Assembly (NCBI GenBank): GCA_964408485.1
Contig: CAYOZJ010000004.1
Location: 8,685 to 72,684, forward strand
Source of the DNA: an uncultured Gammaproteobacteria bacterium
Lineage (GTDB): Bacteria; Patescibacteriota; Microgenomatia; Levybacterales; UBA12049
DNA: 64,000 bases
Direction of reading: 5' to 3'
In this document: positions 8,992 through 56,974 of the stretch, piece by piece
How positions within the stretch are numbered: the first letter of the stretch is position 1
How the letters are laid out: every line of letters begins with the position of its first letter
Program-made: the position numbers and the translations under genes
Notes under the pieces: generated by a model
What the model was told of the DNA's origin: nothing
Databases searched by the model: none
What the model saw: the letters and a program-made list of their open reading frames with translations, nothing else

Positions 8992-9068
8992 TAAAAATTT
9001 CAAATCGCCGCTTCGGGGAAGCTGACACCTCGGGGAGGATAATCCCGAGTCGGGAAGTACCCTTGGGG
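8992..9068 (+). repeat. GC-rich repeat family B (core CGCCGCTTCGG(G/C)GAAGCT..GTACCCTTGGGGT), long variant with an internal hairpin. An inverted long copy lies at 16778-16855.
   Basis: Near-identical 70-nt sequence found in reverse complement at 16778-16855. Shorter versions at 15727-15770, 41162-41200 and 35443-35480 (reverse). Confidence 0.55.
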
Positions 9069-9105
9069 TAAGAAATTTAAAATTCCACTATGATATAGTG
9101 GATAT

Positions 9106-13140: not shown

Positions 13141-14004
13141 CTAATGCCAAACGGTTAAGAATAATCCTGCAATAACAATTAATGCCGCAATTAGTTTTCT
13201 CCATAGATCATTCGTTTCTTTGTGCACAAACATGGCTGTTAGGACATTAAATAGTACAGAAAGTGATGCAAGGGGGATAACGACAATAATGGGACCAAGT
13301 TGTGCTGCGCGTATAATGGAGAATGCTAAGATACTCCATGATGTGCCGGCAAGTATGTAATAAAGTCGCTGTTTTGGTACAAATTCTTTTTTTACATCGC
13401 TAAATTTTGTTTTGGTGATAAATTTTATTGTTATTGCTGAAAAAAGATAAGTAAAAGCAATATAAAAAGGGATGTTGAAGTTTTGAGAAAAACCAATATC
13501 CAGACTCAATGCGATAGCCAAGAATGTGCATGCGATAACCATAAGTGCTGTGTATTTGTTAACGACAAATTTGCCCTTTCGATACATCAAGAGAATATTA
13601 GCTCCAATAATACATAATGCTCCAATAACTTTTCCGATAACGAATGGTTGTTTAAAAACAAGAAATCCAATGATGATAATAAAGACACTCGTCATTTCAT
13701 TAAGAAGGGCTGCTTCGGATGCAGGAAGAAATTTTCGAGCAGTTGTTTTGAGTCTGTCTTGCATACCTGCGACAAAACAGCTTAATAAAAGAAAAATATA
13801 CAACACTGGATTTGTAGGGATAAGAAAAGGAAATAAAGGAATAAGGAAGAGAAGACCTATTGTGGCTATGATTTCCAAAAGCATTGTTGCGGCACTATCA
13901 TTTTTTGCATGCTGAACAGCAAGCTTATATGTCTGGGTAAAAATAACGTCACAAACAATGCTAAGGATTACATAAAATTGCCAGGAATTAAGCAGGTTGC
14001 CCAT
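13141..14004 (-). CDS. Polytopic membrane protein, DMT/EamA-like
   Basis: About 10 hydrophobic helices. Confidence 0.45.
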   Translation of the reverse strand: MGNLLNSWQFYVILSIVCDVIFTQTYKLAVQHAKNDSAATMLLEIIATIGLLFLIPLFPFLIPTNPVLYIFLLLSCFVAGMQDRLKTTARKFLPASEAALLNEMTSVFIIIIGFLVFKQPFVIGKVIGALCIIGANILLMYRKGKFVVNKYTALMVIACTFLAIALSLDIGFSQNFNIPFYIAFTYLFSAITIKFITKTKFSDVKKEFVPKQRLYYILAGTSWSILAFSIIRAAQLGPIIVVIPLASLSVLFNVLTAMFVHKETNDLWRKLIAALIVIAGLFLTVWH

Positions 14005-14056
14005 TTATAAAGCGTAGCATATTGTCAGAGGATTTTATATCTGGTACAGTTTTCCT

Positions 14057-14638
14057 ATGAATCTGCAAACTCTTCTGGTAATTCTCAGTTCTATTTTGGT
14101 TACAGTGGGACCCATTACCTATGCGGTAAGCATTATTAAAGGATCAACACGACCTCACCGTATGACGCGATTTATTCTCGCGTTTGTTTTGACATTGAAT
14201 TTTGTTAGCATCCTTGCAGCAAAGAGCAATCTCGGAGCAGAAGTATTCGCAGGAATTACTTGTATTCAGTCGCTCGCCATTTTTGCATTGAGTCTCTGGA
14301 AAGGTATGGGAGGAACAACTAAATTTGATTGGGTATGTTTAGGTATTGCGCTAATTGGATTAGTTGGTTGGAAAATAACAGGGGATCCCCTTTTAGGTGT
14401 TTGGTTTTCTGTTTTGGCAGATTTTGTTGCATATTTACCTGCATTTGTTAAGACATATTACCATCCTCATACAGAATCTCCTTGGTATTATTTGTTGAGT
14501 GGTTTGGCAGCGCTAATTAGTTTAGTGGCATATAAAATAGAATCAGCGTCAATATTTCAAATATATATACTTCTGTGTGTCATTATTATGACTATACTTA
14601 TCTATAGGAAGGATATTAAAAGAAAGTTTAGTTTATAA
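14057..14638 (+). CDS. Hypothetical 6-TM membrane protein
   Basis: Hydrophobic helices only. Confidence 0.4.
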   Translation: MNLQTLLVILSSILVTVGPITYAVSIIKGSTRPHRMTRFILAFVLTLNFVSILAAKSNLGAEVFAGITCIQSLAIFALSLWKGMGGTTKFDWVCLGIALIGLVGWKITGDPLLGVWFSVLADFVAYLPAFVKTYYHPHTESPWYYLLSGLAALISLVAYKIESASIFQIYILLCVIIMTILIYRKDIKRKFSL

Positions 14639-16762
14639 ATATTTTTTTACTTCCAGTTTATAGTCCTTTATTTTAAATTTTTTCCTCAGTTGGGCAATAG
14701 GAAGTGTAAGATACTGTTTTGCTAATTTTTGAGACTCTCTTTCATATTCTTTTGCGAGGGTTTTATATTTTCCAATACCTTTTTTTATAATTTTATCTTC
14801 CTGCTGTAATACGTCAACATAAAGAAGAAATTTTCCCAACCCTTTTTTCTGAAAATCTGACATGGATACGGGGTTGATGCGAATACTGGAGAATTTTTTT
14901 GAAAAAGTAAGACGATGCCTAAATGTTGCCACATTTTTTTCAAGAATTTCTTTGTCCTTTGCCAGAGATTGGTCGGGAAGTCCAAAGCTGTCAAACAGAA
15001 GAGAAAGAAAGAGTCGTTTTGTCCTGTCAATCATGCTTCCACCCATTTCGTCTTTTTCCGGAACAGCCACTCCCATAATTTCTGCTTGTTCACGAGCAAT
15101 ACTTGGCAATGCGCAGGAGATTGCTGCAATATATGTTTGGAGTGCTATCTTTTCATCTTCATGGACTCTTTTTTTGGCTCTTTGAAAAAGTTGCATAAAT
15201 TCCTTGGCACGGTCACTAAATCCATCAATCAAATGCCCAGCTGTATCTGGTATTACGTATTTAGTATTAAGTATATTTTGAGATTTTTCATCCATTCCAC
15301 TTTGTTCAGGATTCGAGATGACAGGATTTTCTTTACGCTTAACGCTTAACGCTTTACGCTGTCTTGCTCTAATCCCATCTAAGACATCGGTAAGATTGCC
15401 AAATGTATAGTGATACCAGCCTTTTGTTTTAGTAATAACGGATTTGTCATTAAGTTGTTTGAGTCCGAGAGAAAGTTTATTGAGTCCCAAAACAGAAATT
15501 TCATTTGGAGAAAGATTTTTATCAACGAGTCGATCTAAAGCCCATTCAAATTTACGAATAACATTTCGCGCTTTATTATTTTGTGCTGGTGTGAATTGCG
15601 ATTGTTTTATTGCTAAATTGTTAAATTGTTGAGATTGCTTCGCTTCAGTTCCTTCGCTCGCAATGACGGAAGTATTGTTGTTTGAGCTTGTCGAGAACCT
15701 TTGGCTTTCTTTTACGCTTGACGCTTGACGCGCCGCTTCGGCAAAGCTAGTACCCTTGGGGTGCTTTACCCTTAATTCCGGTCTGAGTGTCCATAAAATT
15801 TCCTTTGGTCCGTCTCCTTCGAGAATATGAATACTATTATTGTCTTTCATTTTTTCTTTGAGCATCTCGCGTGCAAGTGGTGTTGGATGGACGCCGTATT
15901 GAGAAAGAGTATAAGAGGTTGGGTCCTCCTTCATGGTAAGCATTGGAATATCAACAGTTGCATCGCCAAAAAGAAATGCATGGATACGCTTGTCATTGCG
16001 AGGAGTCGAAGGCGACGTGGCAATCTCATTAGATTGCTTCGCTTTGTTCGTAATGACATTTTCAGAACCAGAATGGCGATTGAGTTCGATCGCCAAATTT
16101 TTTAATACATACTGCACAGCTTTGTCTTTCCCTGCAGTACTTGGGGTAATAAGTAATTCTCCTGAGAATGTTTCTAGTGAGTTTTTCCATAACAACTTTT
16201 CTGTAAGAATAATGCGAATACCCTTTGGGAATAACTTGAGAACTTCCCTGCGAATAGCATCTACTTGTTTGAGTGGATACGTATTGAGTCTAATGCGTAT
16301 TAAATAGGTATTGCCTCTTCCCAAACGAAACATAAGACCATTGCTTTGTAAATACTGTGTGATGCCATCAGTTATTTCCGCTTTATTCCATGAACTAACA
16401 TTGCCTTGTGCATCAGTTACTTTTGTTGACTGCATAGTCCCTTGCCATGAAAAATCACTGATATATCCGTTTCGTGTCGCGAAGTAAATAATCGTCCCAT
16501 TTGCCGTGATAACAGCATCTGGCTTGGGTACGCCAAGAAGCTTTAAGTGATACTTATCAATCCGTCGCCAAAAAGATCGGCCAGTGACAATAATAAAAGG
16601 GATGCATTTTGCAGAAATATACGCTGCTGTTTGTAAATTAAAGAGAGGTGCAGTAAGAAGGTTAAGGTTGGGGCTAAAAAGCGTGCCATCAATATCGGTA
16701 AGCAACATCGTGGGTTTGTCTTGCTTTTCGAGTTTGGTTAAAATTATATCTGTATCAGACAT
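14633..16762 (-). CDS. 709-aa protein. N-terminal HAD-IIB sugar-phosphate phosphatase domain (SPP/MPGP-like), then a ~400-aa region of unknown function. The linker region passes through several GC-rich repeat elements in frame.
   Basis: HAD motif I LLTDIDGTLF, motif II IVTGRS, motif III lysine in AGKDKAVQYV and motif IV FGDATVDIPML. Repeat-derived segments RVKHPKGTSFAEAARQ, VIASEGTEAKQSQ and RKALSVKRK appear in the translation. Confidence 0.6.
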   Translation of the reverse strand: MSDTDIILTKLEKQDKPTMLLTDIDGTLFSPNLNLLTAPLFNLQTAAYISAKCIPFIIVTGRSFWRRIDKYHLKLLGVPKPDAVITANGTIIYFATRNGYISDFSWQGTMQSTKVTDAQGNVSSWNKAEITDGITQYLQSNGLMFRLGRGNTYLIRIRLNTYPLKQVDAIRREVLKLFPKGIRIILTEKLLWKNSLETFSGELLITPSTAGKDKAVQYVLKNLAIELNRHSGSENVITNKAKQSNEIATSPSTPRNDKRIHAFLFGDATVDIPMLTMKEDPTSYTLSQYGVHPTPLAREMLKEKMKDNNSIHILEGDGPKEILWTLRPELRVKHPKGTSFAEAARQASSVKESQRFSTSSNNNTSVIASEGTEAKQSQQFNNLAIKQSQFTPAQNNKARNVIRKFEWALDRLVDKNLSPNEISVLGLNKLSLGLKQLNDKSVITKTKGWYHYTFGNLTDVLDGIRARQRKALSVKRKENPVISNPEQSGMDEKSQNILNTKYVIPDTAGHLIDGFSDRAKEFMQLFQRAKKRVHEDEKIALQTYIAAISCALPSIAREQAEIMGVAVPEKDEMGGSMIDRTKRLFLSLLFDSFGLPDQSLAKDKEILEKNVATFRHRLTFSKKFSSIRINPVSMSDFQKKGLGKFLLYVDVLQQEDKIIKKGIGKYKTLAKEYERESQKLAKQYLTLPIAQLRKKFKIKDYKLEVKKYL
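15636..15770. repeat. Cluster of repeat fragments inside the same CDS: family A half-site 15636-15675, family D ACGCTTGACGCTTGACGC and family B 15727-15770
   Basis: Matches to copies at 18980-19012, 16853-16920 and 41162-41200, seen directly. Confidence 0.5.
16005..16070. repeat. 66-nt imperfect palindrome (family A: GTCATTGCGAG...GCAATCTC/ATTAGATTGC...CGTAATGAC) inserted in frame in the HAD domain. It encodes VITNKAKQSNEIATSPSTPRND between HAD motifs III and IV.
   Basis: The two halves are reverse complements. 66 nt equals 22 codons with no stop in the coding frame. Confidence 0.6.
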
Positions 16763-16777
16763 AGTGTAAGAAAGCGT

Positions 16778-16855
16778 TAAGGGGAAAGTACCCCAAGGGT
16801 ACTTCCCGACTCGGGATTATCCTCCCCGAGGTGTCAGCTTCCCCGAAGCGGCGCG
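16778..16855 (-). repeat. Inverted copy of the family B long repeat, followed by family D (CGTAAAGCGTTAAG...TTGACGCTTAACGCT) up to ~16920
   Basis: Reverse complement of 8992-9068 with only a few mismatches. Confidence 0.55.
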
Positions 16856-16957
16856 TAAAGCGTTAAGTTTATAAAGAACTTTTATCTTTACCCTTAACCT
16901 TTGACGCTTAACGCTATTCTCATTGTACCAAAAAATACAACGTGGTATTATATTTTT

Positions 16958-17788
16958 ATGGATAAATCCCCCCAGAAAATCCTCGCCGGTGCGTTAAAGG
17001 AAGCCTATTCATTTAGTATCCGTGGGATTGAAAAATTGCGAGATAAGTATATTTGGACAAAGGAAGAGATACAGGATGCTAGAGGCTATTTGATTTACTT
17101 TAGAGATCTTATGAAGACAGAGAATCCAAGTCTTTTCCAGGAGATTTTTGGTGAAGGAGAATTTTTTGATTTAGAGCCATTTGCGAGGGGCTATACATCC
17201 CATGTACTTGCTTTCCGTACTATTGTTGACAAGCGGATTAAGCGGTGGGTTATTAAAGTAGGATTTCGTTATACATTTGTGCCGGACAATGGTGACCCAT
17301 CCAATAGTGAATATCCAAAAGAATATCAAAAATATCTAGATATTTTGCGTGAATCTGTTAAAAAATATAGTCATTTAAATCAGTTGCTTCCAGAGCCACA
17401 GGCAGTTACCTGGGCATCACTTCTTGCAGAGGATGGAAAAAAACATGAAACAACACTTGCTATTCAACCTTGCATGAATGTGATTAAATCTTCCAAGCTT
17501 CGTCGCATCATTACAGGTCAGCAGAAAAAAGATTTACTTGTTGAATTAAGAGAATTTAAAGAATTGTCTGAGTATCTTATTAAAACTCACGAAGTACGGC
17601 CGGAATTAGTAGGGGAAGGGAATTTGGAGATTGTGAGAAAAGGAGACGAGTATCACATAATGCTTCTTGATATGGGGTGGATTGATTTAAAGAAAACACT
17701 TCCTATCACCCATGCAGTTGCACATTTTTCGGCTCAATATGCTGTTGCCAAGCTCGAGGATTGGTTAAAGAGTAGATCCTTTTTTTAA
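16958..17788 (+). CDS. Hypothetical 276-aa protein. The ORF opens at 16901, but the ATG at 16958 (MDKSPQKIL) is more plausible.
   Basis: No recognisable family. HIMLLDMGWIDL is weakly reminiscent of a kinase-like DxG segment. Confidence 0.45.
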   Translation: MDKSPQKILAGALKEAYSFSIRGIEKLRDKYIWTKEEIQDARGYLIYFRDLMKTENPSLFQEIFGEGEFFDLEPFARGYTSHVLAFRTIVDKRIKRWVIKVGFRYTFVPDNGDPSNSEYPKEYQKYLDILRESVKKYSHLNQLLPEPQAVTWASLLAEDGKKHETTLAIQPCMNVIKSSKLRRIITGQQKKDLLVELREFKELSEYLIKTHEVRPELVGEGNLEIVRKGDEYHIMLLDMGWIDLKKTLPITHAVAHFSAQYAVAKLEDWLKSRSFF

Positions 17789-17789
17789 A

Positions 17790-17910
17790 TTAACCTAATT
17801 CACCTAATTAACCTAATTTCTAAAGAAGCTCTAATAACACAATTAAGAAATTGATTTGCTCATTGGCGAATTTGGGATTTTTTAGGTTAATTAGGAATTA
17901 GAAATTTGTA
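17790..17910. promoter_or_regulatory. AT-rich inverted repeats (CTAATTCACCTAATTAACCTAA ... TTAGGTTAATTAGGAATTAG) between convergent genes. Possible bidirectional terminator or long hairpin.
   Basis: About 22-bp arms separated by ~50 nt. Related CCTAATTC(T)TAATT motifs occur at 22715-22745 and 29795-29830. Confidence 0.35.
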
Positions 17911-18208
17911 AAAGAGAACTCTTCAGGTCTACTTTATCCTTGTCAAACAATACTCCCTCTGCAATAAGCTTTGCCTTTTGTACGCTCTCTCCACCAAATG
18001 CATATCCAGGAGTTAGTTTGCCCGTTGCAAAAACAACTCTATGACACGGAATATTCTCTGGATCGGAATTTACATGCAGGGCAAAACCTACTACTCGAGG
18101 CGTTGCAACATTAGCAAGTATTGCAACTTGTCCATATGTCATTACTTTTCCTTTGGGAATTTTTTTGACAATATCATAAATTCGATCGTATGAATTATTC
18201 TGCTTCAT
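17891..18208 (-). CDS. MGMT-family methylated-DNA-protein-cysteine methyltransferase, single-domain (YbaZ/Ogt C-terminal domain-like)
   Basis: Active-site motif IPCHRVV is present and a catalytic Cys is retained. Confidence 0.8.
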   Translation of the reverse strand: MKQNNSYDRIYDIVKKIPKGKVMTYGQVAILANVATPRVVGFALHVNSDPENIPCHRVVFATGKLTPGYAFGGESVQKAKLIAEGVLFDKDKVDLKSSLLQISNS

Positions 18209-18209
18209 A

Positions 18210-18974
18210 TTAAGTAAGTTGTAAGTTTACAGAGCATAAGTAGTGATCACTGATACTCTTTTCCACTTCATAATCTACCACACCCCAGTGCTTGGAAACA
18301 AGAATATGGTCTTGTTGGCCACGCGTCGGTGTTGTGTCCTCATGAAAAATCTCAGTAAAGGTGGGAAAGAGCCCAGGAATTAGTTTTTCTAACCCATCGA
18401 TATTAAAATCAGCACCAATGATAGTTGGTCTATTACTCAATGGAACAAGAATATTCGTAATTGCTTCTCGAATAAAATCAAATGAACTTTCTGAAAAATT
18501 TCTTCCGTAATAATGAAATGGTACTAAATGTCCATTGACCACATAAATTGTTTGTCCTTTGTATTCAACTTCGGAAATAAGAAAACCACAATCGAGCGTT
18601 CTCCAAATTGCTCCATTCGGTCTGGTAACAGATAGGTTTGGATTAGGTGGTTTTTGGATTGTTGATTTTTTTATTGTCTGTTTGCTCAAGGTGACCATTG
18701 CCAAGTGTGAGCCTGGTTTTATATGCGAGTCATTATTATATGAATAGATTTGACTCGGTTTCATATGAAGGGCTTCGGATAATGTTGCAGCTTGTTGAGA
18801 TCCAGTGAGGCTTTCTGCATGTATTTCTTGAAGACAAATGACATCAGCATTATCTCTCTGAAGAGGTGGGATAAACGCTTCGATATTTTCTTGTGCATAA
18901 TCATTCCGCGACCATTCTTTGGTTCTACTAATAAGAGGAAAAGCGCCACCAATATTCCAAGAGATAAGTTTCAT
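18210..18974 (-). CDS. Endonuclease/exonuclease/phosphatase (EEP) family protein. ORF extends to 19007, but the extra N-terminal MLRFARNDEKY is translated repeat, so the start is probably MKLISWNIGG at 18974.
   Basis: WNIGG at the N-terminus, ICLQEI, and a C-terminal D..H pattern typical of the EEP fold. Confidence 0.7.
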   Translation of the reverse strand: MKLISWNIGGAFPLISRTKEWSRNDYAQENIEAFIPPLQRDNADVICLQEIHAESLTGSQQAATLSEALHMKPSQIYSYNNDSHIKPGSHLAMVTLSKQTIKKSTIQKPPNPNLSVTRPNGAIWRTLDCGFLISEVEYKGQTIYVVNGHLVPFHYYGRNFSESSFDFIREAITNILVPLSNRPTIIGADFNIDGLEKLIPGLFPTFTEIFHEDTTPTRGQQDHILVSKHWGVVDYEVEKSISDHYLCSVNLQLT

Positions 18975-19013
18975 ATATTTTTCGTCATTGCGAGCAAAGC
19001 GAAGCAATCTAAG

Positions 19014-19346
19014 TTATGGTTTTTTTTGATATTTCTCTTCAACTTTTTTTAATTTATCTTCTATAGCGCGTTCTATGTCTACATTTGCTGCATTGGCAAG
19101 TTGAATTGTTGTCATAATAACATCGGCAAATTCTTGATACACATTTCTCTTATCAAAATGATCAAGTTTTGCTTTTCGCTGAAGCTTAAGAATAGATAAA
19201 ATATCGTTACACAATTCTCCAACCTCTTCGTTGAGCTTTACTGTCCTGCTTAAAATCTCCTGCTCTTCTGGAGTACGGAGTTTGTACACAACAGCAGAAT
19301 TTTTTGCTAGTTCTTTGAGTCTTTCTTGAAGGTTCTTAACGTTCAT
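19014..19346 (-). CDS. MazG-like nucleotide pyrophosphohydrolase (small all-alpha NTP-PPase)
   Basis: EEVGELCNDI and EFADVIMTTIQLA helices with conserved acidic residues. Size 110 aa. Confidence 0.7.
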   Translation of the reverse strand: MNVKNLQERLKELAKNSAVVYKLRTPEEQEILSRTVKLNEEVGELCNDILSILKLQRKAKLDHFDKRNVYQEFADVIMTTIQLANAANVDIERAIEDKLKKVEEKYQKKP

Positions 19347-19490
19347 ATATCCATTTTAGCACATATCATTGTTCAAGCGAACCCTTCGATGCGATTTACT
19401 TACTCAGGGAAAATTTTGCCTGAGCGAAGTCGAAGGCTTAATAGTTACTCTCTCGAAGAATAATTAGGTATGTGCTACAATCATTTTGTT

Positions 19491-20267
19491 ATGAACTTTC
19501 TTCAGGCAATTATTGTGGGTATTGTCGAAGGCATAACAGAATTTCTTCCAATTTCTTCTACCTTTCATCAAATTTGGACAGCAAAGCTGTTAGGAATTCC
19601 TCAAACAGATTTTGTAAAACTTTTTGAAGTCTTTATTCAAGTTGGTGCAATTGCATCTATTGCAATTCTCTATTGGAAAATAATTAAGACTGACTTAGAT
19701 TTGGTTAAGAAAACTCTTGTTGCCTTTGTGCCCACAGCAATTATTGGCTTTGCAATGTATAAGGTGATTAAGAATGTTTTCTTTGAATCAGCACCTATTA
19801 TGCTCACTGTTTTTATTGGTATTGGAGCATTTTTTATTGTATATGAGTGGTATATAAAACGAAATAAAATAGACCTGCATAAGACACTTTCAGAATTTAC
19901 CTACAAGCAGGCACTGATTATTGGTGTTATTCAGGCGCTAGCAATTGTTCCAGGTGTGTCTCGCGCTGGAGCAGTACTTTTGGGTATGATGTTTTTTAGA
20001 TTTAAAAGAAGTGAGTCGGCAAAATTTTCATTCCTCTTAGCACTCCCAACTCTTGCTGCAGCATCTTTTTATGATTTATTTAAAATGAGAAGCTTACTCT
20101 CCGGGAATATTGACCACGTAGAACTTTTAGCGACTGGAACAATAGCGGCATTTATTAGCGCATATGTTGTGGTGAAATGGTTTGTGACCTATCTGCAACA
20201 GCATTCCCTCACAAACTTCGGTTGGTATAGGATAGTTGTTGGGATTCTCCTCATTTTTGTTAAGTGA
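19491..20267 (+). CDS. uppP: Undecaprenyl-diphosphatase UppP/BacA
   Basis: Signature GIVEGITEFLPISSTFH and second motif PGVSRAGA. Confidence 0.9.
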   Translation: MNFLQAIIVGIVEGITEFLPISSTFHQIWTAKLLGIPQTDFVKLFEVFIQVGAIASIAILYWKIIKTDLDLVKKTLVAFVPTAIIGFAMYKVIKNVFFESAPIMLTVFIGIGAFFIVYEWYIKRNKIDLHKTLSEFTYKQALIIGVIQALAIVPGVSRAGAVLLGMMFFRFKRSESAKFSFLLALPTLAAASFYDLFKMRSLLSGNIDHVELLATGTIAAFISAYVVVKWFVTYLQQHSLTNFGWYRIVVGILLIFVK

Positions 20268-33395: not shown

Positions 33396-34256
33396 ATGAA
33401 GGGTAAAATACTCCAAAGATTTTCTGTCGTGATTTTTTGTGCAGTTGTTTTCTTTACAATACACGCACTTGTACTCGCTGCATCTTTCTCTCTACAAAGT
33501 AATCAATCAGCAATTGGTACAGGTGATGAATATACTGTGAATGCAACACTTTCTATTAGTGCATCAGATGGGACACAGTATTTTCTTCGCGGAGTATTTT
33601 ATCAACCAGGAACATCTAACTACTGCGGCTATACATACAATGGATCATCCTACTACAACGGGCCATATACAACAAATAATGGGTGGCAAAATGTTTTGCC
33701 AATAACAGTCCAAAATAGTAGTTGGAGTGGTACATTAAAAGCAAAAATTGACTCGTCAGATAGTGGGTGTCAGTCGTCCGGTACGTATAATTTTAAAATT
33801 CAACGGTTTACGACATCGGGAAGCGGAACATTTGATAATCAGAATGAGCAAACAATTTCTGTAATAATTCCAACACCAACGCCAACGAATAGTCCAACAT
33901 CAATTCCTGCTGCAACGAGTACCCCTGTTCCAACGACCAAAATTACCTCTTCACCAACCCCGATTAAATCGGGGCCAACACCAAAGCCAACACTAACCCC
34001 CTTCCCGACAGTTCTTTCTGCAAGCACTTCGAGTCAGACAGATGATTCAGGCTTGTCCACAGAAAATACGCCTACAGGAGAGGGACTTGTTGCTGGAATA
34101 AGTGATGAGAGAAAGCCACTTGGTGGCTTTAATCCATTTGCTATTGCGCTTATTGTTATAGGAGTTGGAATCATTCTTACCTGTGGTATACTATTTTTTC
34201 GAGAATGGAAAAAGTCTCGGTTAAGAAAGGACACAGATGAAGTTACACACGAATAG
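33396..34256 (+). CDS. Cell-surface protein: signal peptide, ~150-aa globular domain, Pro/Thr-rich linker, C-terminal TM anchor with basic tail
   Basis: PTPTPTNSPTSIPAATSTPVPTTKITSSPTPIKSGPTPKPTLTP linker, then IALIVIGVGIILTCGILFF and KKSRLRK. Confidence 0.5.
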   Translation: MKGKILQRFSVVIFCAVVFFTIHALVLAASFSLQSNQSAIGTGDEYTVNATLSISASDGTQYFLRGVFYQPGTSNYCGYTYNGSSYYNGPYTTNNGWQNVLPITVQNSSWSGTLKAKIDSSDSGCQSSGTYNFKIQRFTTSGSGTFDNQNEQTISVIIPTPTPTNSPTSIPAATSTPVPTTKITSSPTPIKSGPTPKPTLTPFPTVLSASTSSQTDDSGLSTENTPTGEGLVAGISDERKPLGGFNPFAIALIVIGVGIILTCGILFFREWKKSRLRKDTDEVTHE

Positions 34257-34725
34257 TGCGTTGGAAACGCAAAAAACAGGTGCGGAATTTGCAAAACAAC
34301 TCCGTGGTGGAGATGTTGTTTTATTATATGGGGAATTAGGTGCGGGGAAAACAACATTTACCCAAGGAGTGGCATATGGACTTGGCATTGAAAGGCGAAT
34401 TATTTCTCCAACGTTTATTATTGTGAGAAAGTATGAAGTACCCAGTGTCATTCTGGGGAACGTAGTGACTCCAGAATCTGGTTCAAGAATAGATTCTGGA
34501 CAAGCCAGAATGACGGTTAAAACCCTCTACCACATAGATCTTTATAGAACTCAAACAGATGATGATTTAAAGGGATTAGGGTTACAAGAAATATTAGAAG
34601 AAAAAGATGCAATTGTTGTTATTGAGTGGCCAGAAAAATTGGGTTCTCTTTTCCCAAAGAAAGCATGGGAAGTAAAGTTTGTTGATGACCAGCACGATGA
34701 AAGGGATGTTACAATAGAGAAATAA
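34237..34725 (+). CDS. tsaE: tRNA t6A37 biosynthesis ATPase TsaE (YjeE) carrying an in-frame ~23-aa insertion encoded by a palindromic repeat
   Basis: P-loop YGELGAGKTTF, SPTF and YHIDLYR motifs. The insertion is SVILGNVVTPESGSRIDSGQARM, between SPTF...Y and YHIDLYR. Confidence 0.85.
   Translation: MKLHTNSALETQKTGAEFAKQLRGGDVVLLYGELGAGKTTFTQGVAYGLGIERRIISPTFIIVRKYEVPSVILGNVVTPESGSRIDSGQARMTVKTLYHIDLYRTQTDDDLKGLGLQEILEEKDAIVVIEWPEKLGSLFPKKAWEVKFVDDQHDERDVTIEK
34447..34515. repeat. 69-nt palindrome (family C: GTCATTCTGG...CCAGAATCTGG/..TCTGGACAAGCCAGAATGAC) inside tsaE
   Basis: Arms are reverse complements. Related copies at 38283-38342, 54608-54640 and 54917-54960. Confidence 0.6.
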
Positions 34726-34828
34726 AATTTACCCGTTCGACACTCGATTCAGTGTTTGCTTCGCCGAAGCGGCACAGCTCAGGGATAAATTTTTCCTGAG
34801 CGAATAGAATGAGTCGAAGGATAATCTA

Positions 34829-35407: not shown

Positions 35408-35490
35408 TATTCTTCGAGCAGAGCGAGAAGTTATTCCCCCAAGGGGACTAGCTTCACCGAAACGGCGTACTCCGTTCGAACAATAAATCT

Positions 35491-38281: not shown

Positions 38282-38350
38282 TGTCATTCTGGCTTGTCCA
38301 GAATCTAGATCCTGGATGCACTACGCTTACCAGGATGACTGTTTAAAATT

Positions 38351-41085: not shown

Positions 41086-41161
41086 GAATAATTTCTCAGT
41101 TGTCAGTTCTCAATTTTCATTGAATTGAATAATGATCATTGAATCATTTATTGAAAACTGG

Positions 41162-41200
41162 AAATCGCCGCTTCGGCGAAGCTAGTACCCTTGGGGTAGT
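41162..41200 (+). repeat. Family B short repeat (AATCGCCGCTTCGGCGAAGCTAGTACCCTTGGGGTAG), 18 nt upstream of the ugd ATG
   Basis: Matches 15727-15770 and the core of 8992-9068. Confidence 0.5.
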
Positions 41201-41217
41201 AAATTGAAAACATCATT

Positions 41218-42528
41218 ATGACTATAACATTTCTTGGACATGGTTATGTAGGGTTAGTAACAGCAGCAGTTTTTGCCGATCTTGGCAATAAAGTGTGGGT
41301 TATTGGTCACACAAAAGAAAAAATTGAAAACCTTAAAAATGGTATTCTCCCAATCTATGAACCAGGACTTGAAGAATTGGTTGTTCGTAACGTAAAAGCA
41401 GGACGTCTCTTATTTACTCTTGATTACAAACCAGCAATTCCAGAATCAGACGTTGTCTTTATTGCGGTAGGTACACCACCGAAGCCAACAGGAGAAGCAG
41501 ATTTATCTGTTGTTTTTGAGGTTGCAGAAAAAATTGGTCAAAATTTAGATGGATATACAGTTGTTATAACAAAAAGCACTGTGCCAGTTGGGACAAATAA
41601 AAAGGTTGGGGAGATTTTGGCAAAAGTAAAACCTGCTAAGGCTGAATTTGATATTGCATCCTGTCCGGAATTTTTGCGGGAAGGTCAGGCAATTGGAGAC
41701 ACCCAGCATCCCGATAGAGTTGTTATTGGAGCAGATAGTAAGCGAGCAGAAGAGAAATTAGTTGAGCTCCATAAGCCAATTTTAGAGGGAAATGGAAAAT
41801 CAAAATTAGTTTTAACAAATATTTCTACAGCAGAAATGATTAAGTATGCATCGAATGCATTTTTAGCAACAAAGATTAGTTTTGCTAATGCAATTGCCCA
41901 ACTCTCTGAAAAAGTCGGTGCAGATGGTCCAGACGTCCTTACGGCAATTGGGCTTGATAAACGAATTGGAACATACTTCTTAAATGCAGGAGCAGGATAT
42001 GGTGGAAGCTGCTTTCCAAAAGATGTAAAAGCACTTATTGCAATAGCCGGAGAAAATGGATATGACTTTAAGCTCTTAAAAGATGTTGAGGAAGTAAATA
42101 AAGAAGCAATGCATGCTGTTGCAAAAAAAGTTAAAAAACTTCTTGGAGATGTAAAAGGAAAGCGAGTCGGCGTATTGGGTCTTACCTTTAAGCCGGATAC
42201 CGATGACATGCGCGATGCGCCAAGCAGGACAGTCTTGCCGGAGCTCTTAAAAGATGGGGCAAGTGTGGTCGCATTTGATCCTATTGCAACGAATGCAAAT
42301 AAGAAATTTCCAGAATTAGCAGGACTGGAAATGGCAAAAGATGCATACGATGTTGCAAAAAACGCGGATATTTTAGTTGTTATGACAGAATGGAACGAAT
42401 TTAAGCAAATGGATGTTGAGAAAATAAAATCGCTCATGAAATCCCCAGTAGTTGTTGATGGACGAAATATGTTTGACGCAAAGCAAATGCGTTCTCTTGG
42501 ATTTACCTATGTTGGTGTTGGAAGATAA
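41218..42528 (+). CDS. ugd: UDP-glucose 6-dehydrogenase
   Basis: GHGYVGL NAD-binding, catalytic GGSCFPKD and the C-terminal UDP-binding domain. Confidence 0.9.
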   Translation: MTITFLGHGYVGLVTAAVFADLGNKVWVIGHTKEKIENLKNGILPIYEPGLEELVVRNVKAGRLLFTLDYKPAIPESDVVFIAVGTPPKPTGEADLSVVFEVAEKIGQNLDGYTVVITKSTVPVGTNKKVGEILAKVKPAKAEFDIASCPEFLREGQAIGDTQHPDRVVIGADSKRAEEKLVELHKPILEGNGKSKLVLTNISTAEMIKYASNAFLATKISFANAIAQLSEKVGADGPDVLTAIGLDKRIGTYFLNAGAGYGGSCFPKDVKALIAIAGENGYDFKLLKDVEEVNKEAMHAVAKKVKKLLGDVKGKRVGVLGLTFKPDTDDMRDAPSRTVLPELLKDGASVVAFDPIATNANKKFPELAGLEMAKDAYDVAKNADILVVMTEWNEFKQMDVEKIKSLMKSPVVVDGRNMFDAKQMRSLGFTYVGVGR

Positions 42529-48452: not shown

Positions 48453-48526
48453 AATATTTAACCCATTCGATAAGCTCAGGGATAAAATATTTTTTCCTGA
48501 GCGAGCAAAGCGAGTCGAAGGATAAT

Positions 48527-54640: not shown

Positions 54641-54937
54641 ATGAAACAAGGTTTTGTTTACATAATGGCTAACGATAAACCAGTTATATACACTGGGGTA
54701 ACAAGTAATTTGATTCAAAGGGTTCATCAGCATAAAAATCATTTGGTTCAAGGATTCACTTCAAAATATAATCTTCATAAACTTGTTTACTACGAAACTT
54801 TAAATACTATAGAGAGCGCTATTACTAGAGAGAAACAAATTAAGGATATGGATAGAAAGGATAAATTACTTATGATTGAAAAATTGAACCCTGATTTTAA
54901 AGACTTGTATGGAGAGATTCTGGACAAGCCAGAATGA
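54641..54937 (+). CDS. GIY-YIG nuclease superfamily protein (98 aa), flanked on both sides by family C palindromic repeats
   Basis: FVYIMANDKPVIYTGVTSNLIQRVHQH GIY-YIG core. Repeats at 54608-54640 and 54917-54960. Confidence 0.75.
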   Translation: MKQGFVYIMANDKPVIYTGVTSNLIQRVHQHKNHLVQGFTSKYNLHKLVYYETLNTIESAITREKQIKDMDRKDKLLMIEKLNPDFKDLYGEILDKPE

Positions 54938-54975
54938 CAGAACGCTCAGGCAAGATTTGTTTACGCTTTTCGCTT

Positions 54976-55434
54976 TTAATTTTTTGCTTGTAAGGCTTCT
55001 TTAACGAGTTTGCTTACCAAAGATCCATCTGCTTTTCCTTTTACTTTTGGCATAAGAAGTGCCATAACTTTTCCCATATCTGCTGGTGTACTTGCGCCAG
55101 ATGCGGCAACTGCTTCATCAACATATTTCTTTACTTCTGTCTCACTCATCTGCTCGGGTAGGTAGGTTTCTAAAATAGTAAGTTCTGCTTTTTCTTTATC
55201 TACTAAATCCTGTCTTCCGGCATTTTGAAATTGTTCTATGGAATCTTTTCGTTGTTTAATTTCCTTATTTATTACAGTCATGACATCTTCTTCTGTTGCT
55301 TCATATCCTGCGCCACCTTTTTGAATTTCATAGTAGGTTATACCAGAGAGGATAAAACGAATAACAGCAGTCCTTAGCTCGTCTTTGGCAAGCATAGACT
55401 GCTTGAGTTGGTCTTTCAGTTGTTGCTTTTGCAT
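54976..55434 (-). CDS. GatB/YqeY-domain protein. The ORF extends to 55515 through repeat-derived sequence, and the start is likely MQKQQLKDQ at 55434.
   Basis: C-terminal block [31 protein letters not shown] is typical of YqeY. Confidence 0.75.
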
Positions 55435-55552
55435 AAAACAAGTATAGTCTTCTTGTTCGAGCTTGTCGAGAACTTCTCGGCTTCCCAGATTCGGGACTAG
55501 TGCTCGATTCAGCATTTTCCTCGCCGAGGTGGCGTTCGCCGAACCGCCGCAC

Positions 55553-56974
55553 TTACTCGCTCGAAGAATAAAGTTCGTGAACTCTTTTTAATAAGTGTTC
55601 TTTATTATTCAATTCTAAATTCTCATCAACTTCTTCAAATAATTTTTGTAAAAGCTCTCCCACTTGTCGTCCTGGTTTCATGTTCAGCTCTTTCATAATG
55701 TCATTACCATCGATTACAAGGTCATTAATAGAAAATGGACCTGGTGCTAATTCTTTCTCAATTCGCTCTCTAAATAACTTTAATCTCCAAGATTCTGCTG
55801 TTTGGGTACCACTTCCTAATCTATCACCAATACGAAGATCTATCATATCTTTTACATTTTCAACACCAATACGTCGTATAAATCTTCTTACTGCACTATC
55901 TGTAATATGCTCGTCAACGGTAAACATATGCCAGCGAATAAGGGTAATAATTTTTTTCTTGTCCTTTTTAGAGAAATGAAGCCTATTTGCAATATCGTAT
56001 GCAATTTGCGCCCCTGCTATTTCGTGATTGTAAAAAATAACTAGTCCACTTTTGTCCTCACTTCTCACGCGAGGCTTACCAATGTCATGAATAAGTGTTG
56101 CAAAGCGGACAATGGAATCTGTTGCAGGAGTAAGTTTGAGACTAAGCACATTGTGAGTAAATACATCCTCTGTGTGATGTCTTCCGGGACGTTCCTGGGA
56201 CATGCCCACTCCTTCTAAGAGTTCAGGCAAAATATATTGGAGTAAATTAGCATTTTTTAAAAGCATAATTCCCTCATACGGATAATCACTTGCAAGAATC
56301 TTCATAAGTTCATCCCGAATGCGCTCGTTAGAAATGAGAGGAAGGAGTTGAGAGTCTTCTAAAATTGCTTTCCATGTATTCTCTTCAATGGTAAAGCTCA
56401 ATTGTGTTGCAAAACGAATTGCGCGCATAAGGCGTAGTGTATCTTCTTTAAATCGTTCGTTTGGATTTCCAACTGCTCGAATAAGATGGTTTTCTAAATC
56501 CTTTTGTCCGTGGTATGGATCCACAATGTTTTCTCCATTAGTCAGGCTAAGTGCCATGGCATTAATAGTAAAGTCGCGTCGTTGCAAATCTTCCTCGATT
56601 GTTTTTCCCCAAGCGACAATTTCTGGATGCCTACTGTCTGTGTAATTTCGCTCTGTACGGTATGTTGTTATTTCAACGATCTGGTTATTAGTTATTGGTT
56701 CGTGGTTCGTGGTTTCTTTTTCTTGTTCCGAACCATCAGCTATTAGCTCTAAACTAATCGGTACTCCCACTGTTCCAAACTGATTATCGTAAAAACCATT
56801 TGGGAAAACTTTTAAAATTTCCTCAGGTGTTGCATTGGTTGTCATGTCCCAATCTTTAACACTCTTTTTAAGAAACATGTCTCTTACGCAACCGCCAACG
56901 AAGTACACTTCAAAACCTGCGCGAGAAAGAGTATGGTATACTGACAAGACTGACTCTGGAATAGAATTCTCCAT
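55553..56974 (-). CDS. cca: tRNA nucleotidyltransferase (CCA-adding enzyme) with C-terminal HD domain. Start likely MENSIPESV at 56974.
   Basis: [22 protein letters not shown] and HD motif IHDIGKP. Confidence 0.85.

Follow-up and report, generated by a model that had tools for sequence, protein, structure and literature searches.

We consider here a gene on the minus strand of a 64,000-nucleotide (nt) stretch of a metagenome-assembled genome (MAG) contig; the whole stretch is referred to below as the window. The gene (positions 14633-16762) is, with high probability, a single functional Patescibacteria gene, encoding a conserved bifunctional protein, that has been colonised at three sites by short palindromic and mosaic repeats. 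The additional blocks are absent from orthologues and resemble intergenic copies in the window, the reading frame and the catalytic residues are kept, and the blocks coincide with low-confidence segments of the structural model. Gene calling has not created this feature, which is real; the open reading frame (ORF) starts with ATG and has 709 codons with an intact frame in the ORF list of the window. The protein joins a predicted HAD-IIB phosphatase domain to a domain similar to CDP-alcohol phosphotransferases (CDP-AP), with the following features (aa, amino acids; A1, the alignment described below).

14633..16762, minus strand: the whole gene, HAD-IIB phosphatase plus CDP-AP-like domain, 709 aa, stop codon included.
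15788..16714, minus strand: HAD-IIB phosphatase domain, approximately aa 17-325, motifs I-IV intact (Pfam, TIGR01484, Foldseek).
15992..16078, minus strand: insertion 1 (RHSGSENVITNKAKQSNEIATSPSTPRND), 29 aa (aa 229-257), 87 nt, between HAD motif III (K212) and motif IV (G266-D267).
15596..15769, minus strand: interdomain linker, 58 residues (aa 332-389), a mosaic of repeat modules.
15731-15775, 15710-15732, 15671-15709, 15631-15667 and 15604-15630: the linker modules, respectively B, D, E, a family A unit and an AT-rich periodic tail.
15239..15361, minus strand: insertion 3 (QRKALSVKRKENPVISNPEQSGMDEKSQNILNTKYVIPDTA), 41 aa (aa 468-508), 123 nt, inside the spacer of the CDP-AP signature.
14636..15586, minus strand: CDP-AP-fold domain, aa 393-709, approximately 317 aa, no predicted transmembrane helix.
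15362..15388, minus strand: first half of the CDP-AP signature, D459-V-L-D462-G463-I-R-A466-R467, invariant columns in A1.
15212..15238, minus strand: second half of the signature, G509-H-L-I-D513-G-F-S-D517, invariant columns in A1.

The protein was aligned with 18 orthologues (alignment A1, 19 sequences), and an AlphaFold2 model was built on this alignment (mean predicted local distance difference test score, pLDDT, 78.6). Compared with the other sequences of A1, the window protein contains three additional blocks of 87 nt, approximately 145-174 nt and 123 nt, which add approximately 120 residues. No block contains a stop codon in the reading frame, and insertion 1, which is absent at its site from all 18 orthologues, is open in four of the six frames. 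The AlphaFold run suggested in an earlier model-made note on this DNA (the original prediction) gave pLDDT of 85-96 for both domains (for the HAD domain, approximately 85-96 outside insertion 1), and the only internal stretches with pLDDT below 65, residues 230-258, 334-402 and 472-507, are the three blocks, with 50-63 in insertion 1 and less than 50 in the linker and in insertion 3. All residues invariant in A1 are kept in the window protein. The peptides read across the block junctions would include ...ELNRHSGSENVITNK..., ...GTSFAEAAR... and ...ALSVK.... The original prediction had left two possibilities, one gene tolerating several selfish insertions or a fusion of two ancestral genes by repeats; the absence of the blocks from orthologues, their match to otherwise intergenic repeats, the retention of every invariant catalytic residue and the position of the blocks in low-confidence segments of the model all speak for the former.

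Insertion 1 consists of a degenerate family C unit followed by an inverted dimer of family A units, and the dimer forms a palindrome at 15991-16058 with inverted arms 15991-16001 and 16048-16058. The palindrome had been predicted between HAD motifs III and IV, as observed, yet at 16005-16070, with a length of 66 nt and 22 extra residues, whereas the block absent from the orthologues comprises 29 aa, or 87 nt (15992-16078). In the linker, module B is formed by two mini-hairpins and module D is 8-nt periodic. In insertion 3, a D module (15331-15358) is followed by a degenerate GTCAT hairpin and then, at 15243-15277, by an AT-rich tail with 8-nt periodicity. The peptides VIASEGTEAKQSQ, RVKHPKGTSFAEAARQ and RKALSVKRK quoted in the original prediction are all present in the translation, and the proposed origin of the linker from in-frame A, B and D repeats agrees with the blastn matches, except that RKALSVKRK belongs to the 15239-15361 block and not to the linker. 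The description of the elements as GC-rich fits insertion 1 and the linker (local GC 0.45-0.55; window, 0.376) but not the RKALSVKRK block, insertion 3, where GC is 0.35. In the RNA fold of the 15239-15361 loop insertion (minus strand), the 5' AAGCGTTAAGCG periodic module pairs, largely by G-U, with the 3' ATACTTAATACTAAATAC module, and the 3' arm looks as if it were a C-to-T/G-to-A decayed copy of the complement, with a fold z of -0.67 that is not significant.

Comparison of the blocks with the window by blastn relates them to copies outside the gene. Segment 15731-15762 corresponds to 41166-41197 (97%, E 2e-11), 16029-16057 to 18984-19012 (93%, E 2.5e-7), and 15671-15709 to 55446-55484 (E 6e-4; for the core, 15678-15698 and 55453-55473, E 9e-5). 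The region 15710-15775 matches the upstream intergenic region 16777-16874 (E 7e-5 and 6e-4, the former for 15710-15748 and 16836-16874), and linker modules also match 35437-35467. Matches of the D module (CTTTACGCTTAACGCT...) are weaker, with E of 0.004-0.05; the similarity between 15711-15731 and 15331-15358 is marginal (E 0.014), and the D module of insertion 3 also matches 16854-16867. The other copies in the 64 kb lie between genes, with the sole exception of the one in TsaE.

8996-9073, 16774-16874, 18984-19012, 34732-34825, 35433-35483, 38283-38339, 41147-41221, 48491-48526, 54915-54938 and 55446-55580: intergenic repeat copies.
16774..16874, no strand assigned: mosaic repeat in the spacer that separates the gene from its divergent neighbour; RNA fold of the plus strand, z = -4.3.
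34446-34514: in-frame inverted dimer of family C hairpins in TsaE (34237..34725, plus strand), read as VILGNVVTPESGSRIDSGQARMT.

The insertion in TsaE cuts the Pfam TsaE match into two stretches and has a fold z of -4.5. RNA structure as the reason for the copies inside the gene studied here was considered and rejected, as their z is from -0.7 to -1.5, compared to -4.3 for the intergenic mosaic and -4.5 for TsaE. A 65-nt core of the intergenic mosaic (16789-16853) is 100% identical, in the inverted orientation, to 9006-9070, 7.7 kb away (long B element), which suggests recent copying or gene conversion. A short B form, lacking the central 32 nt, is found at 41166-41198 and, inside the ORF, at 15731-15762. 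At the position of 16774-16874, the orthologous spacers are only approximately 36-58 nt long. [quoted passage not shown] The two B copies with AT-rich flanks have these flanks in common, which may therefore belong to the element. Rfam yielded no RNA family, either in the E-value mode on 14000-19500 or in the gathering mode on the whole window, and no tRNA or tmRNA was found in the whole window.

Repeat units are also situated at the 5' ends of the genes for the EEP nuclease (18210..19007; unit 18984-19012) and YqeY (54976..55515; unit 55446-55580). Their N-terminal extensions (LLRFARNDEKY... in the former) were correctly predicted to be spurious and repeat-derived, as the Pfam matches start at aa 15 and aa 30, respectively.

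Mis-assembly is a classic problem at short interspersed repeats, the gene (protein record P0001) is on a 129-kb MAG contig, and a 65-nt copy with complete identity lies just upstream of the gene; thus, it could be argued that repeat-containing reads have been mis-joined or collapsed into the gene. We regard such an assembly or sequencing artefact as highly improbable. There are three separate blocks, each a multiple of three and stop-free, with colinear orthologous coding sequence on both sides of each; the intragenic copies are 79-97%, and not 100%, identical to other copies; and orthologues in independent assemblies have insertions of the same kind at the same loops.

As for the N-terminal domain, the complete HAD-IIB domain claimed for the minus-strand ORF is indeed there. 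Motifs D23-x-D25-G-T27, T60-G-R, K212 and G266-D267-xxx-D271 are invariant across the 19 sequences of A1, and with D23-I-D25-G-T27, T60, K212 and G266-D267-ATV-D271 the window protein has the form that defines these enzymes, DxDx(T/V) as motif I, T or S as motif II, K as motif III and (G/S)Dx3-4D as motif IV. Its Pfam scores, 37.2 bits for S6PP (PF05116) and 30.7 bits for Hydrolase_3 (PF08282), both exceed the cut-offs; with TIGR01484 it reaches 40.3 bits at a cut-off of 41.8, and the orthologue P0004 reaches 43.6 bits. The AlphaFold2 model has a beta/alpha cap at aa 83-207, consistent with a Rossmannoid HAD-IIB core and a C2B cap between motifs II and III, and Foldseek relates the domain to sucrose-phosphatase 1s2o (template-modelling score over the target, TM(target), 0.69), the top matches also including 3pgv, 1ymq and 2rb5. 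Thus, the N-terminal domain is a predicted HAD-IIB phosphatase.

The C-terminal region had been described as approximately 400 aa without a recognisable domain. Instead, it comprises an approximately 317-aa CDP-AP-fold domain, whose signature is split by an insertion. The CDP-AP signature is D1xxD2G1xxAR...G2xxxD3xxxD4, and the nucleotide-binding motif of the family is P(D/N)xx(T/S) (Clarke et al. 2015, PMC4634129). Those orthologues that lack the loop insertion contain the full signature, D-v-L-D-G-i-R-A-R-x8-G-q-L-v-D-G-F-s-D, and its eight residues (D459, D462, G463, A466, R467, G509, D513 and D517) are invariant or nearly so in A1. Upstream of the signature, S-P-N420-E421-I-S423 corresponds to P(D/N)xx(T/S), with N, E and S invariant in A1. 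The distance between AR and G2, canonically approximately eight residues, is 41 residues in the window protein due to the repeat insertion 15239-15361, the longest spacer in the fused family, where x7-9 is seen in most members and eight is modal. The six-helix CDP-AP core fold is present as well.

At the sequence level, PF01066 (gathering threshold, 22 bits) matches 11 of 14 orthologue C-terminal domains with the best E of 3.6e-5. Five full-length orthologues score 17.3-23.0 bits (P0011, 23.0; P0002, P0004, P0009 and P0014, less than 22), and P0020 scores 29.7; the match spans only the motif region, approximately positions 31-76 of the 152 in the profile. The profile of archaetidylinositol-phosphate (AIP) synthase, NF040950, aligns over positions 10-184 of 191 in P0011 (E 2e-8), and that of phosphatidylinositol-phosphate (PIP) synthase, NF045883, aligns more weakly, these NCBIfam matches being far below the equivalog cut-offs (34 vs 180 bits). 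In the profile search described below, the weak tail consists of 250-300-aa proteins which are themselves PF01066 members. Approximately 100 clusters of such proteins (P0066-P0158) share the polar helices and have a single hydrophobic C-terminal helix, so that they look like tail-anchored versions. When compared with the PDB, the sequence profile of the domain gave only a designed-protein match of no significance; a fold search was needed to identify it.

The characterised CDP-APs are membrane-embedded, with 6-10 transmembrane segments (PMC4634129), a feature that the C-terminal domain lacks. In the window protein, the 19-residue Kyte-Doolittle mean peaks at 1.29; across all members it does not exceed 1.74, and most of them have no 19-residue segment above 1.6. 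The grand average of hydropathy (GRAVY) of the domain is -0.52, D, E, K and R account for 31% of its residues, and each predicted helix has 2-10 charges. We conclude that, as judged from sequence, this is a domain with the CDP-AP fold and motifs which does not have the membrane character of the family, apparently a soluble, non-membrane CDP-AP. It can be compared with CDP-APs acting on inositol-1-phosphate, that is, the bacterial PIP synthase (PgsA1, RsPIPS), AIP synthase, and IPCT/DIPP synthase. Whereas the PIP, AIP and DIPP synthases are integral membrane proteins, the domain considered here is polar, with the GRAVY just given, has an extra C-terminal helical region of approximately 110 aa, and is fused to a HAD-IIB phosphatase.

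A spacer of x41 in place of x8, longer than in any other member of the fused family, could also mean that the C-terminal domain has been inactivated by the repeats, the gene being a young pseudogene or a phosphatase-only remnant. In line with this, the window protein lacks the Pfam and NCBIfam matches given by its orthologues, and the gene is far less conserved (53-58% identity) than its neighbour (73-80%). Nevertheless, we consider decay unlikely. The 709-codon frame is intact in a genome with 37.6% GC, and the family-invariant residues are kept in both domains, including the far C-terminus. Long loops also occur in P0017 (x33), P0019 (x25), P0037 (x29) and distant PF01066 relatives (x23-41). 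Finally, the helices flanking insertion 3 are well packed in the AlphaFold2 model (pLDDT 85-95), which further weakens the case for decay.

The age of the two-domain architecture was assessed by an orthologue search that covered 5.8 billion proteins and a profile search that covered 1.84 billion cluster representatives. The 18 orthologues are 542-760 aa long, have 43-58% identity to the window protein, and come from Patescibacteria MAGs where the source is named. They cover 100% of the query in 16 cases and 99% in one, and P0010, labelled partial, covers 85%; P0019 is more distant, with 33% identity and 98% coverage. All 18 orthologues have the two-domain architecture. The profile search yielded 40 strong relatives, 28 of them 500-843 aa long with the C-terminal domain starting near residue 260-400. 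The linkers of the orthologues range from approximately 10 to approximately 80 aa, and in P0003, P0004, P0009 and P0013 the domains are joined by approximately 10 ordinary, repeat-free residues (...LRPELRKQDNKLSPAQNN...); the linker DNA of P0004 is CTCAGACCAGAATTAAGAAAACAAGATAACAAA, without repeat-like sequence. Seven orthologue loci, taken from assemblies that are independent of each other (ENA soil metagenomes, Logan assemblies and NCBI MAGs), share the neighbourhood where the flanks are covered: directly upstream is a divergent gene of 275-281 aa, followed by genes for an MGMT-like and a MazG-like protein and for BacA.

If the repeats had fused a HAD phosphatase gene with an unknown 400-aa gene at this locus by recombination, the linker would be the scar of this event. 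Indeed, it is almost wholly repeat-derived, and stand-alone genes for the C-terminal domain, without a HAD domain, exist in some metagenomes (P0028 and P0041). One of these, P0028, is still adjacent to the same divergent partner (hmmsearch E 1.6e-122). We give this scenario practically no credence, as all 18 orthologues and most family representatives are fused, linkers of P0003, P0004 and P0009 have approximately 10 residues and are free of repeats, and the domain order, length and synteny are alike across independent assemblies. The original prediction had suggested checking whether the HAD domain and the C-terminal region are separate genes in related genomes; they are fused in all 18 orthologues, which, together with the short repeat-free linkers, refutes the fusion of two ancestral genes by repeats. 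Since all orthologues are fused, several of them with a repeat-free linker of about 10 residues, the comparison of sequences indicates that the fusion is old, predates this genome and was not made by repeats. As HAD-less stand-alone genes exist elsewhere, the two domains are evolutionarily separable, but not at this locus and not through repeats.

Some members of the family deserve separate mention. The second stand-alone homologue, P0041 (L016, L017; 2153-3837), is located in a polysaccharide-synthesis cluster with Polysacc_synt flippases, GT2 glycosyltransferases, and RmlC- and RmlD-like genes, and overlaps by 4 nt a gene for a 283-aa protein with a nucleotidyltransferase-like GG..G...DIDF motif, a possible functional clue. 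In P0020 (843 aa), two CDP-AP-like domains in tandem come after the HAD domain. Three orthologue-bearing MAG records, L011 (DASQJJ010000019.1), L010 and L012 (CAZRBN010000005.1, CAYYSJ010000002.1), are titled "Candidatus Eisenbacteria" and "uncultured Gammaproteobacteria"; these contigs are probably mis-binned or mislabelled.

In the orthologues, different GTCAT-hairpin units are found in frame at the same five permissive sites, such as GTCATTCTGGCAAACGAAGTGCGCCCAGAATC in P0007, GTCATTGCGAGCGCGCCGCC... in P0019, GTCATTCTGAACGAAGTGAAGAATCTC in P0006, and SSLREVVDDEAISS and VVASEAKQSL in P0025, and the loop within the signature contains other insertions in P0017, P0018, P0019, P0025 and P0037. 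Repeated independent colonisation of tolerant loops is the simplest account of these insertions. Alternatively, the blocks could be lineage-specific functional loops and linkers (tethers or interaction sites), possibly exapted, whose likeness to intergenic sequences stems from recruitment or selection. The repeated expansion of the same five sites across the family, the linker that is always present while varying in length, and the recurrence of LSVK(R/P)K..., ...ILNT..IP and KQSQQ(F/Y)NN in distant members would be consistent with functional loops. At the same time, what occupies a given site varies from orthologue to orthologue, both in sequence and in repeat family, the closest orthologues lack the blocks, the same units are intergenic elsewhere and occur in unrelated genes of other organisms, and the segments are predicted to be disordered. 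Hence, we find the functional-loop alternative very unlikely, and favour colonisation by repeats.

Several observations weigh against colonisation by repeats or restrict it. KQSQQ(F/Y)NN recurs in P0011, ...ILNT..IP in P0019, LSVK(R/P)K in P0017, and the related RSVKGK in P0037, so the linker and loop blocks may partly be old shared features rather than recent gains; alternatively, these recurring peptides may come from repeated landings of one composite element. The D and H assignment depends in part on marginal E-values (0.004-0.05). The intragenic copies are degenerate and fold weakly, no better than shuffled sequences (z of -0.7 to -1.5). The repeats of the window have no clear target-site duplication, the flanking direct repeats being ambiguous, and no transposase was linked to them, though no search was aimed at transposases. 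The nearest relative in the databases has 58% identity, so that the insertions are undatable and no empty/filled polymorphism has been shown. A 41-residue loop beside the active site might impair catalysis, and the enzymatic activities and solubility are predicted only. The window protein reaches no PF01066 threshold and its C-terminal domain has no Pfam match, as the 41-residue repeat block parts the halves of the signature. As for inteins, introns or programmed bypass, by which the blocks might be removed, no matching motifs were seen in the 87-174-nt blocks, though no test was aimed at them.

The process that we envisage is as follows. The repeats, presumably mobile and presumably neutral, would insert or spread anywhere in the genome. 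In a needed gene, the surviving copies would be those whose length is a multiple of three bases, which contain no in-frame stop, and which fall into a surface loop or linker. The survivors would be translated as disordered loops and then decay.

To classify the repeats, we considered the nine clear units of families A and C in the window, which have the structure (C/T)GTC-AT-stem-loop-stem-AT-CT(A/C). Three of the nine have the tag CGTC, five TGTC, and one AGTC, and their stems (ATTGC...GCAAT, ATTCTGG...CCAGAAT and ATCCTGG...CCAGGAT) all start with A-T. Three of six loci are inverted dimers (15992-16057, 34447-34514 and 38283-38339), and three are singles (15631, 18984 and 54915). Family C units combine a 7-bp stem with a 5-nt loop (CTTGT) and end in a CTA tail, whereas family A has a 5-bp outer stem, a 12-nt loop of the (GCGAA)2GC type, and a CT(A/C) tail. 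These units fit the superfamily of CGTC/TGTC-tagged repetitive extragenic palindromes (REP), including RPE-4 and RPE-6 of the Rickettsia palindromic elements (RPE), and together with the mosaic B, D and E modules they resemble interspersed repeats of the REP/BIME (bacterial interspersed mosaic element) type.

In the CGTC-tagged REPs, the CGTC end is often TGTC, with a CCTC variant allowed, stems of 8-9 bp open with two A-T pairs, loops are 4-5 nt, tails are 3 nt long (consensus CCA), and dimers predominate; intragenic dimers encode 20-30 aa, and a dedicated transposase is not known (Di Nocera et al. 2013, PMC3733652). In that work, CGTC-1 and CGTC-4 were equated with Rickettsia RPE-6 and RPE-4, and the superfamily also includes Neisseria dRS3. 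Compared by description, family C is close to these elements (7-bp stem, 5-nt loop, CTA tail). Family A is alike in the tag, the A-T start, the 3-nt tail and the habit of forming dimers, but differs in the stem (5 bp vs 8-9), the loop (12 nt vs 4-5) and the tail, CT(A/C) instead of CCA. Patescibacteria are outside the five phyla listed (PMC3733652).

The textbook precedent comes from the Rickettsia RPEs, which have entered protein-coding genes without breaking their frame (Ogata et al. 2000, summarised in PMC10969869 and PMC3733652). As far as these accounts go, the likeness to the present case is considerable: short palindromic repeats occur both in intergenic regions and in frame in genes that are still apparently functional, the insertions reside in loops, add approximately 20-50 residues and sometimes come several per gene, and copies near start codons create spurious N-terminal extensions. 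The differences are in the host (Patescibacteria here, Alphaproteobacteria for RPEs), in the units, which here are shorter (25-37 nt) and combined as mosaics with other modules, and in the fact that one insertion here splits a catalytic signature motif. With the REP, BIME and REPIN elements of Proteobacteria, the window repeats share imperfect GC-rich palindromes, often arranged as inverted doublets, in intergenic mosaics; those elements feature the GTAG tag, RAYT transposases and an essentially extragenic location, while the window units lack the GTAG tag. Thus, the kind of event is known from RPE and CGTC-REP insertions, and what is new is the phylum, the mosaic make-up and density, and an insertion inside a catalytic signature.

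Outside the window, the family A 27-mer GTCATTGCGAGCRAAGCGAAGCAATCT is found exactly in at least 120 metagenome contigs (L018-L137) and in 60 viral contigs of IMG/VR (L138-L197). Among the metagenome matches listed, GC of the contigs is 0.30-0.69, and 62 of 124 copies are accompanied within 150 nt by the partner arm ...CTCGCAATGAC, forming a two-arm element with a median length of 84 nt and a variable middle, the same design as in the palindrome of insertion 1. In several contigs the 27-mer is read in frame as VIASEAKQS inside Pfam-confirmed genes, namely those of HypF (L038), DUF1015 (L070, twice), SMC (L076), TilS (L077) and an Eco57I-type methylase (L087). The (GCGAA)2GC loop of family A is formed by two overlapping heptamers of the sequence GCGAAGC, which as DNA forms a mini-hairpin of unusual stability. 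A literature search found the unit sequence and its translations in no paper. The ORF described here is one instance of a broad and apparently little-described phenomenon, and the presence of the 27-mer in very different genomes and viral contigs offers a lead on how REP-like hairpins spread.

On the other side of the intergenic mosaic lies the divergent partner gene.

16958..17788, plus strand: divergent partner gene, 276 aa, of no known family; its orthologues have 275-281 aa.

The orthologues of the partner are 73-80% identical and are encoded on the same contigs as the orthologues of the HAD-CDP-AP gene, for which the identity is 53-58%; the partner is present even beside a HAD-less stand-alone gene (L014/L015). 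Its 295-aa version with a TTG start at 16901 (P0159) is probably a repeat-derived over-extension, the likely true start being 16958. The partner (16958-17788) had no match in Pfam, NCBIfam or PDB, even with an 18-sequence profile. Downstream of the HAD-CDP-AP gene, between it and the gene of the EamA transporter (13141..14004), there is a 193-aa hydrophobic ORF without a family match (14057-14638, plus strand), overlapping the stop of the HAD-CDP-AP gene by 6 nt. As the EamA gene directly follows the orthologue in L001 and L013, this ORF is extra in this genome.

Regarding enzymology, the C-terminal domain would bind a CDP-activated alcohol and transfer the phospho-alcohol to a phosphorylated acceptor, which in its closest relatives (PIP, AIP and DIPP synthases) is inositol-1-phosphate, and the fused HAD-IIB domain would then remove the terminal phosphate, the two forming a synthase-phosphatase couple. 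HAD-IIB enzymes are known from such pairs, namely sucrose-phosphate synthase/phosphatase and mannosyl-3-phosphoglycerate synthase/phosphatase (MPGP). The present case is similar in that the N-terminal domain is nearest to sucrose-phosphatase and MPGP-type enzymes, and in that a transferase would make a phosphorylated intermediate for dephosphorylation by a fused or adjacent HAD-IIB enzyme, with the difference that the partner is a CDP-AP rather than a glycosyltransferase. Given its polarity, the C-terminal domain probably works on soluble or surface-polymer substrates and not from a position in the membrane, and the conserved pairing with the partner gene, together with the polysaccharide-cluster context of one homologue, hints at a soluble or cell-surface product. 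The phosphatase acting after the bacterial PIP synthase was still called unidentified in 2015 (PMC4634129). In a literature search, no paper joined CDP-alcohol with the Candidate Phyla Radiation.

In terms of annotation, in-frame repeats in the repeat-rich genomes of candidate phyla lengthen genes and can hide domains from profile searches; in the window, a complete catalytic signature was hidden in this way, and false N-termini arose in the EEP nuclease, YqeY and the partner gene. For protein evolution, five recurrent permissive sites, one of them inside a catalytic motif, amount to an experiment of nature on how insertions are tolerated; the Rickettsia RPE case is comparable but concerns another phylum. 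In enzymology, a polar homologue that retains all catalytic residues and is fused to a HAD domain would be a tractable soluble model of CDP-AP, and provides a concrete candidate for the organisation of the "synthase + phosphatase" step.

Two wider readings, that the C-terminal domain represents the first member of the CDP-AP superfamily to be water-soluble and that the family A unit is a single cosmopolitan element, are put forward tentatively, as together they seem to us somewhat less probable than the opposite. If the latter were true, a unit identical to the base would be present across organisms with 30-69% GC and viral contigs, recurrently in frame in essential genes, which would imply active horizontal spread or a conserved recognising protein. 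If the former were true, the C-terminal domain, the phosphatase of its own product and the 276-aa partner would constitute a Patescibacteria-specific pathway to a phosphodiester-linked product, the candidates being a solute of the inositol-phosphate or polyol-phosphate type, or a decoration of a surface polymer.

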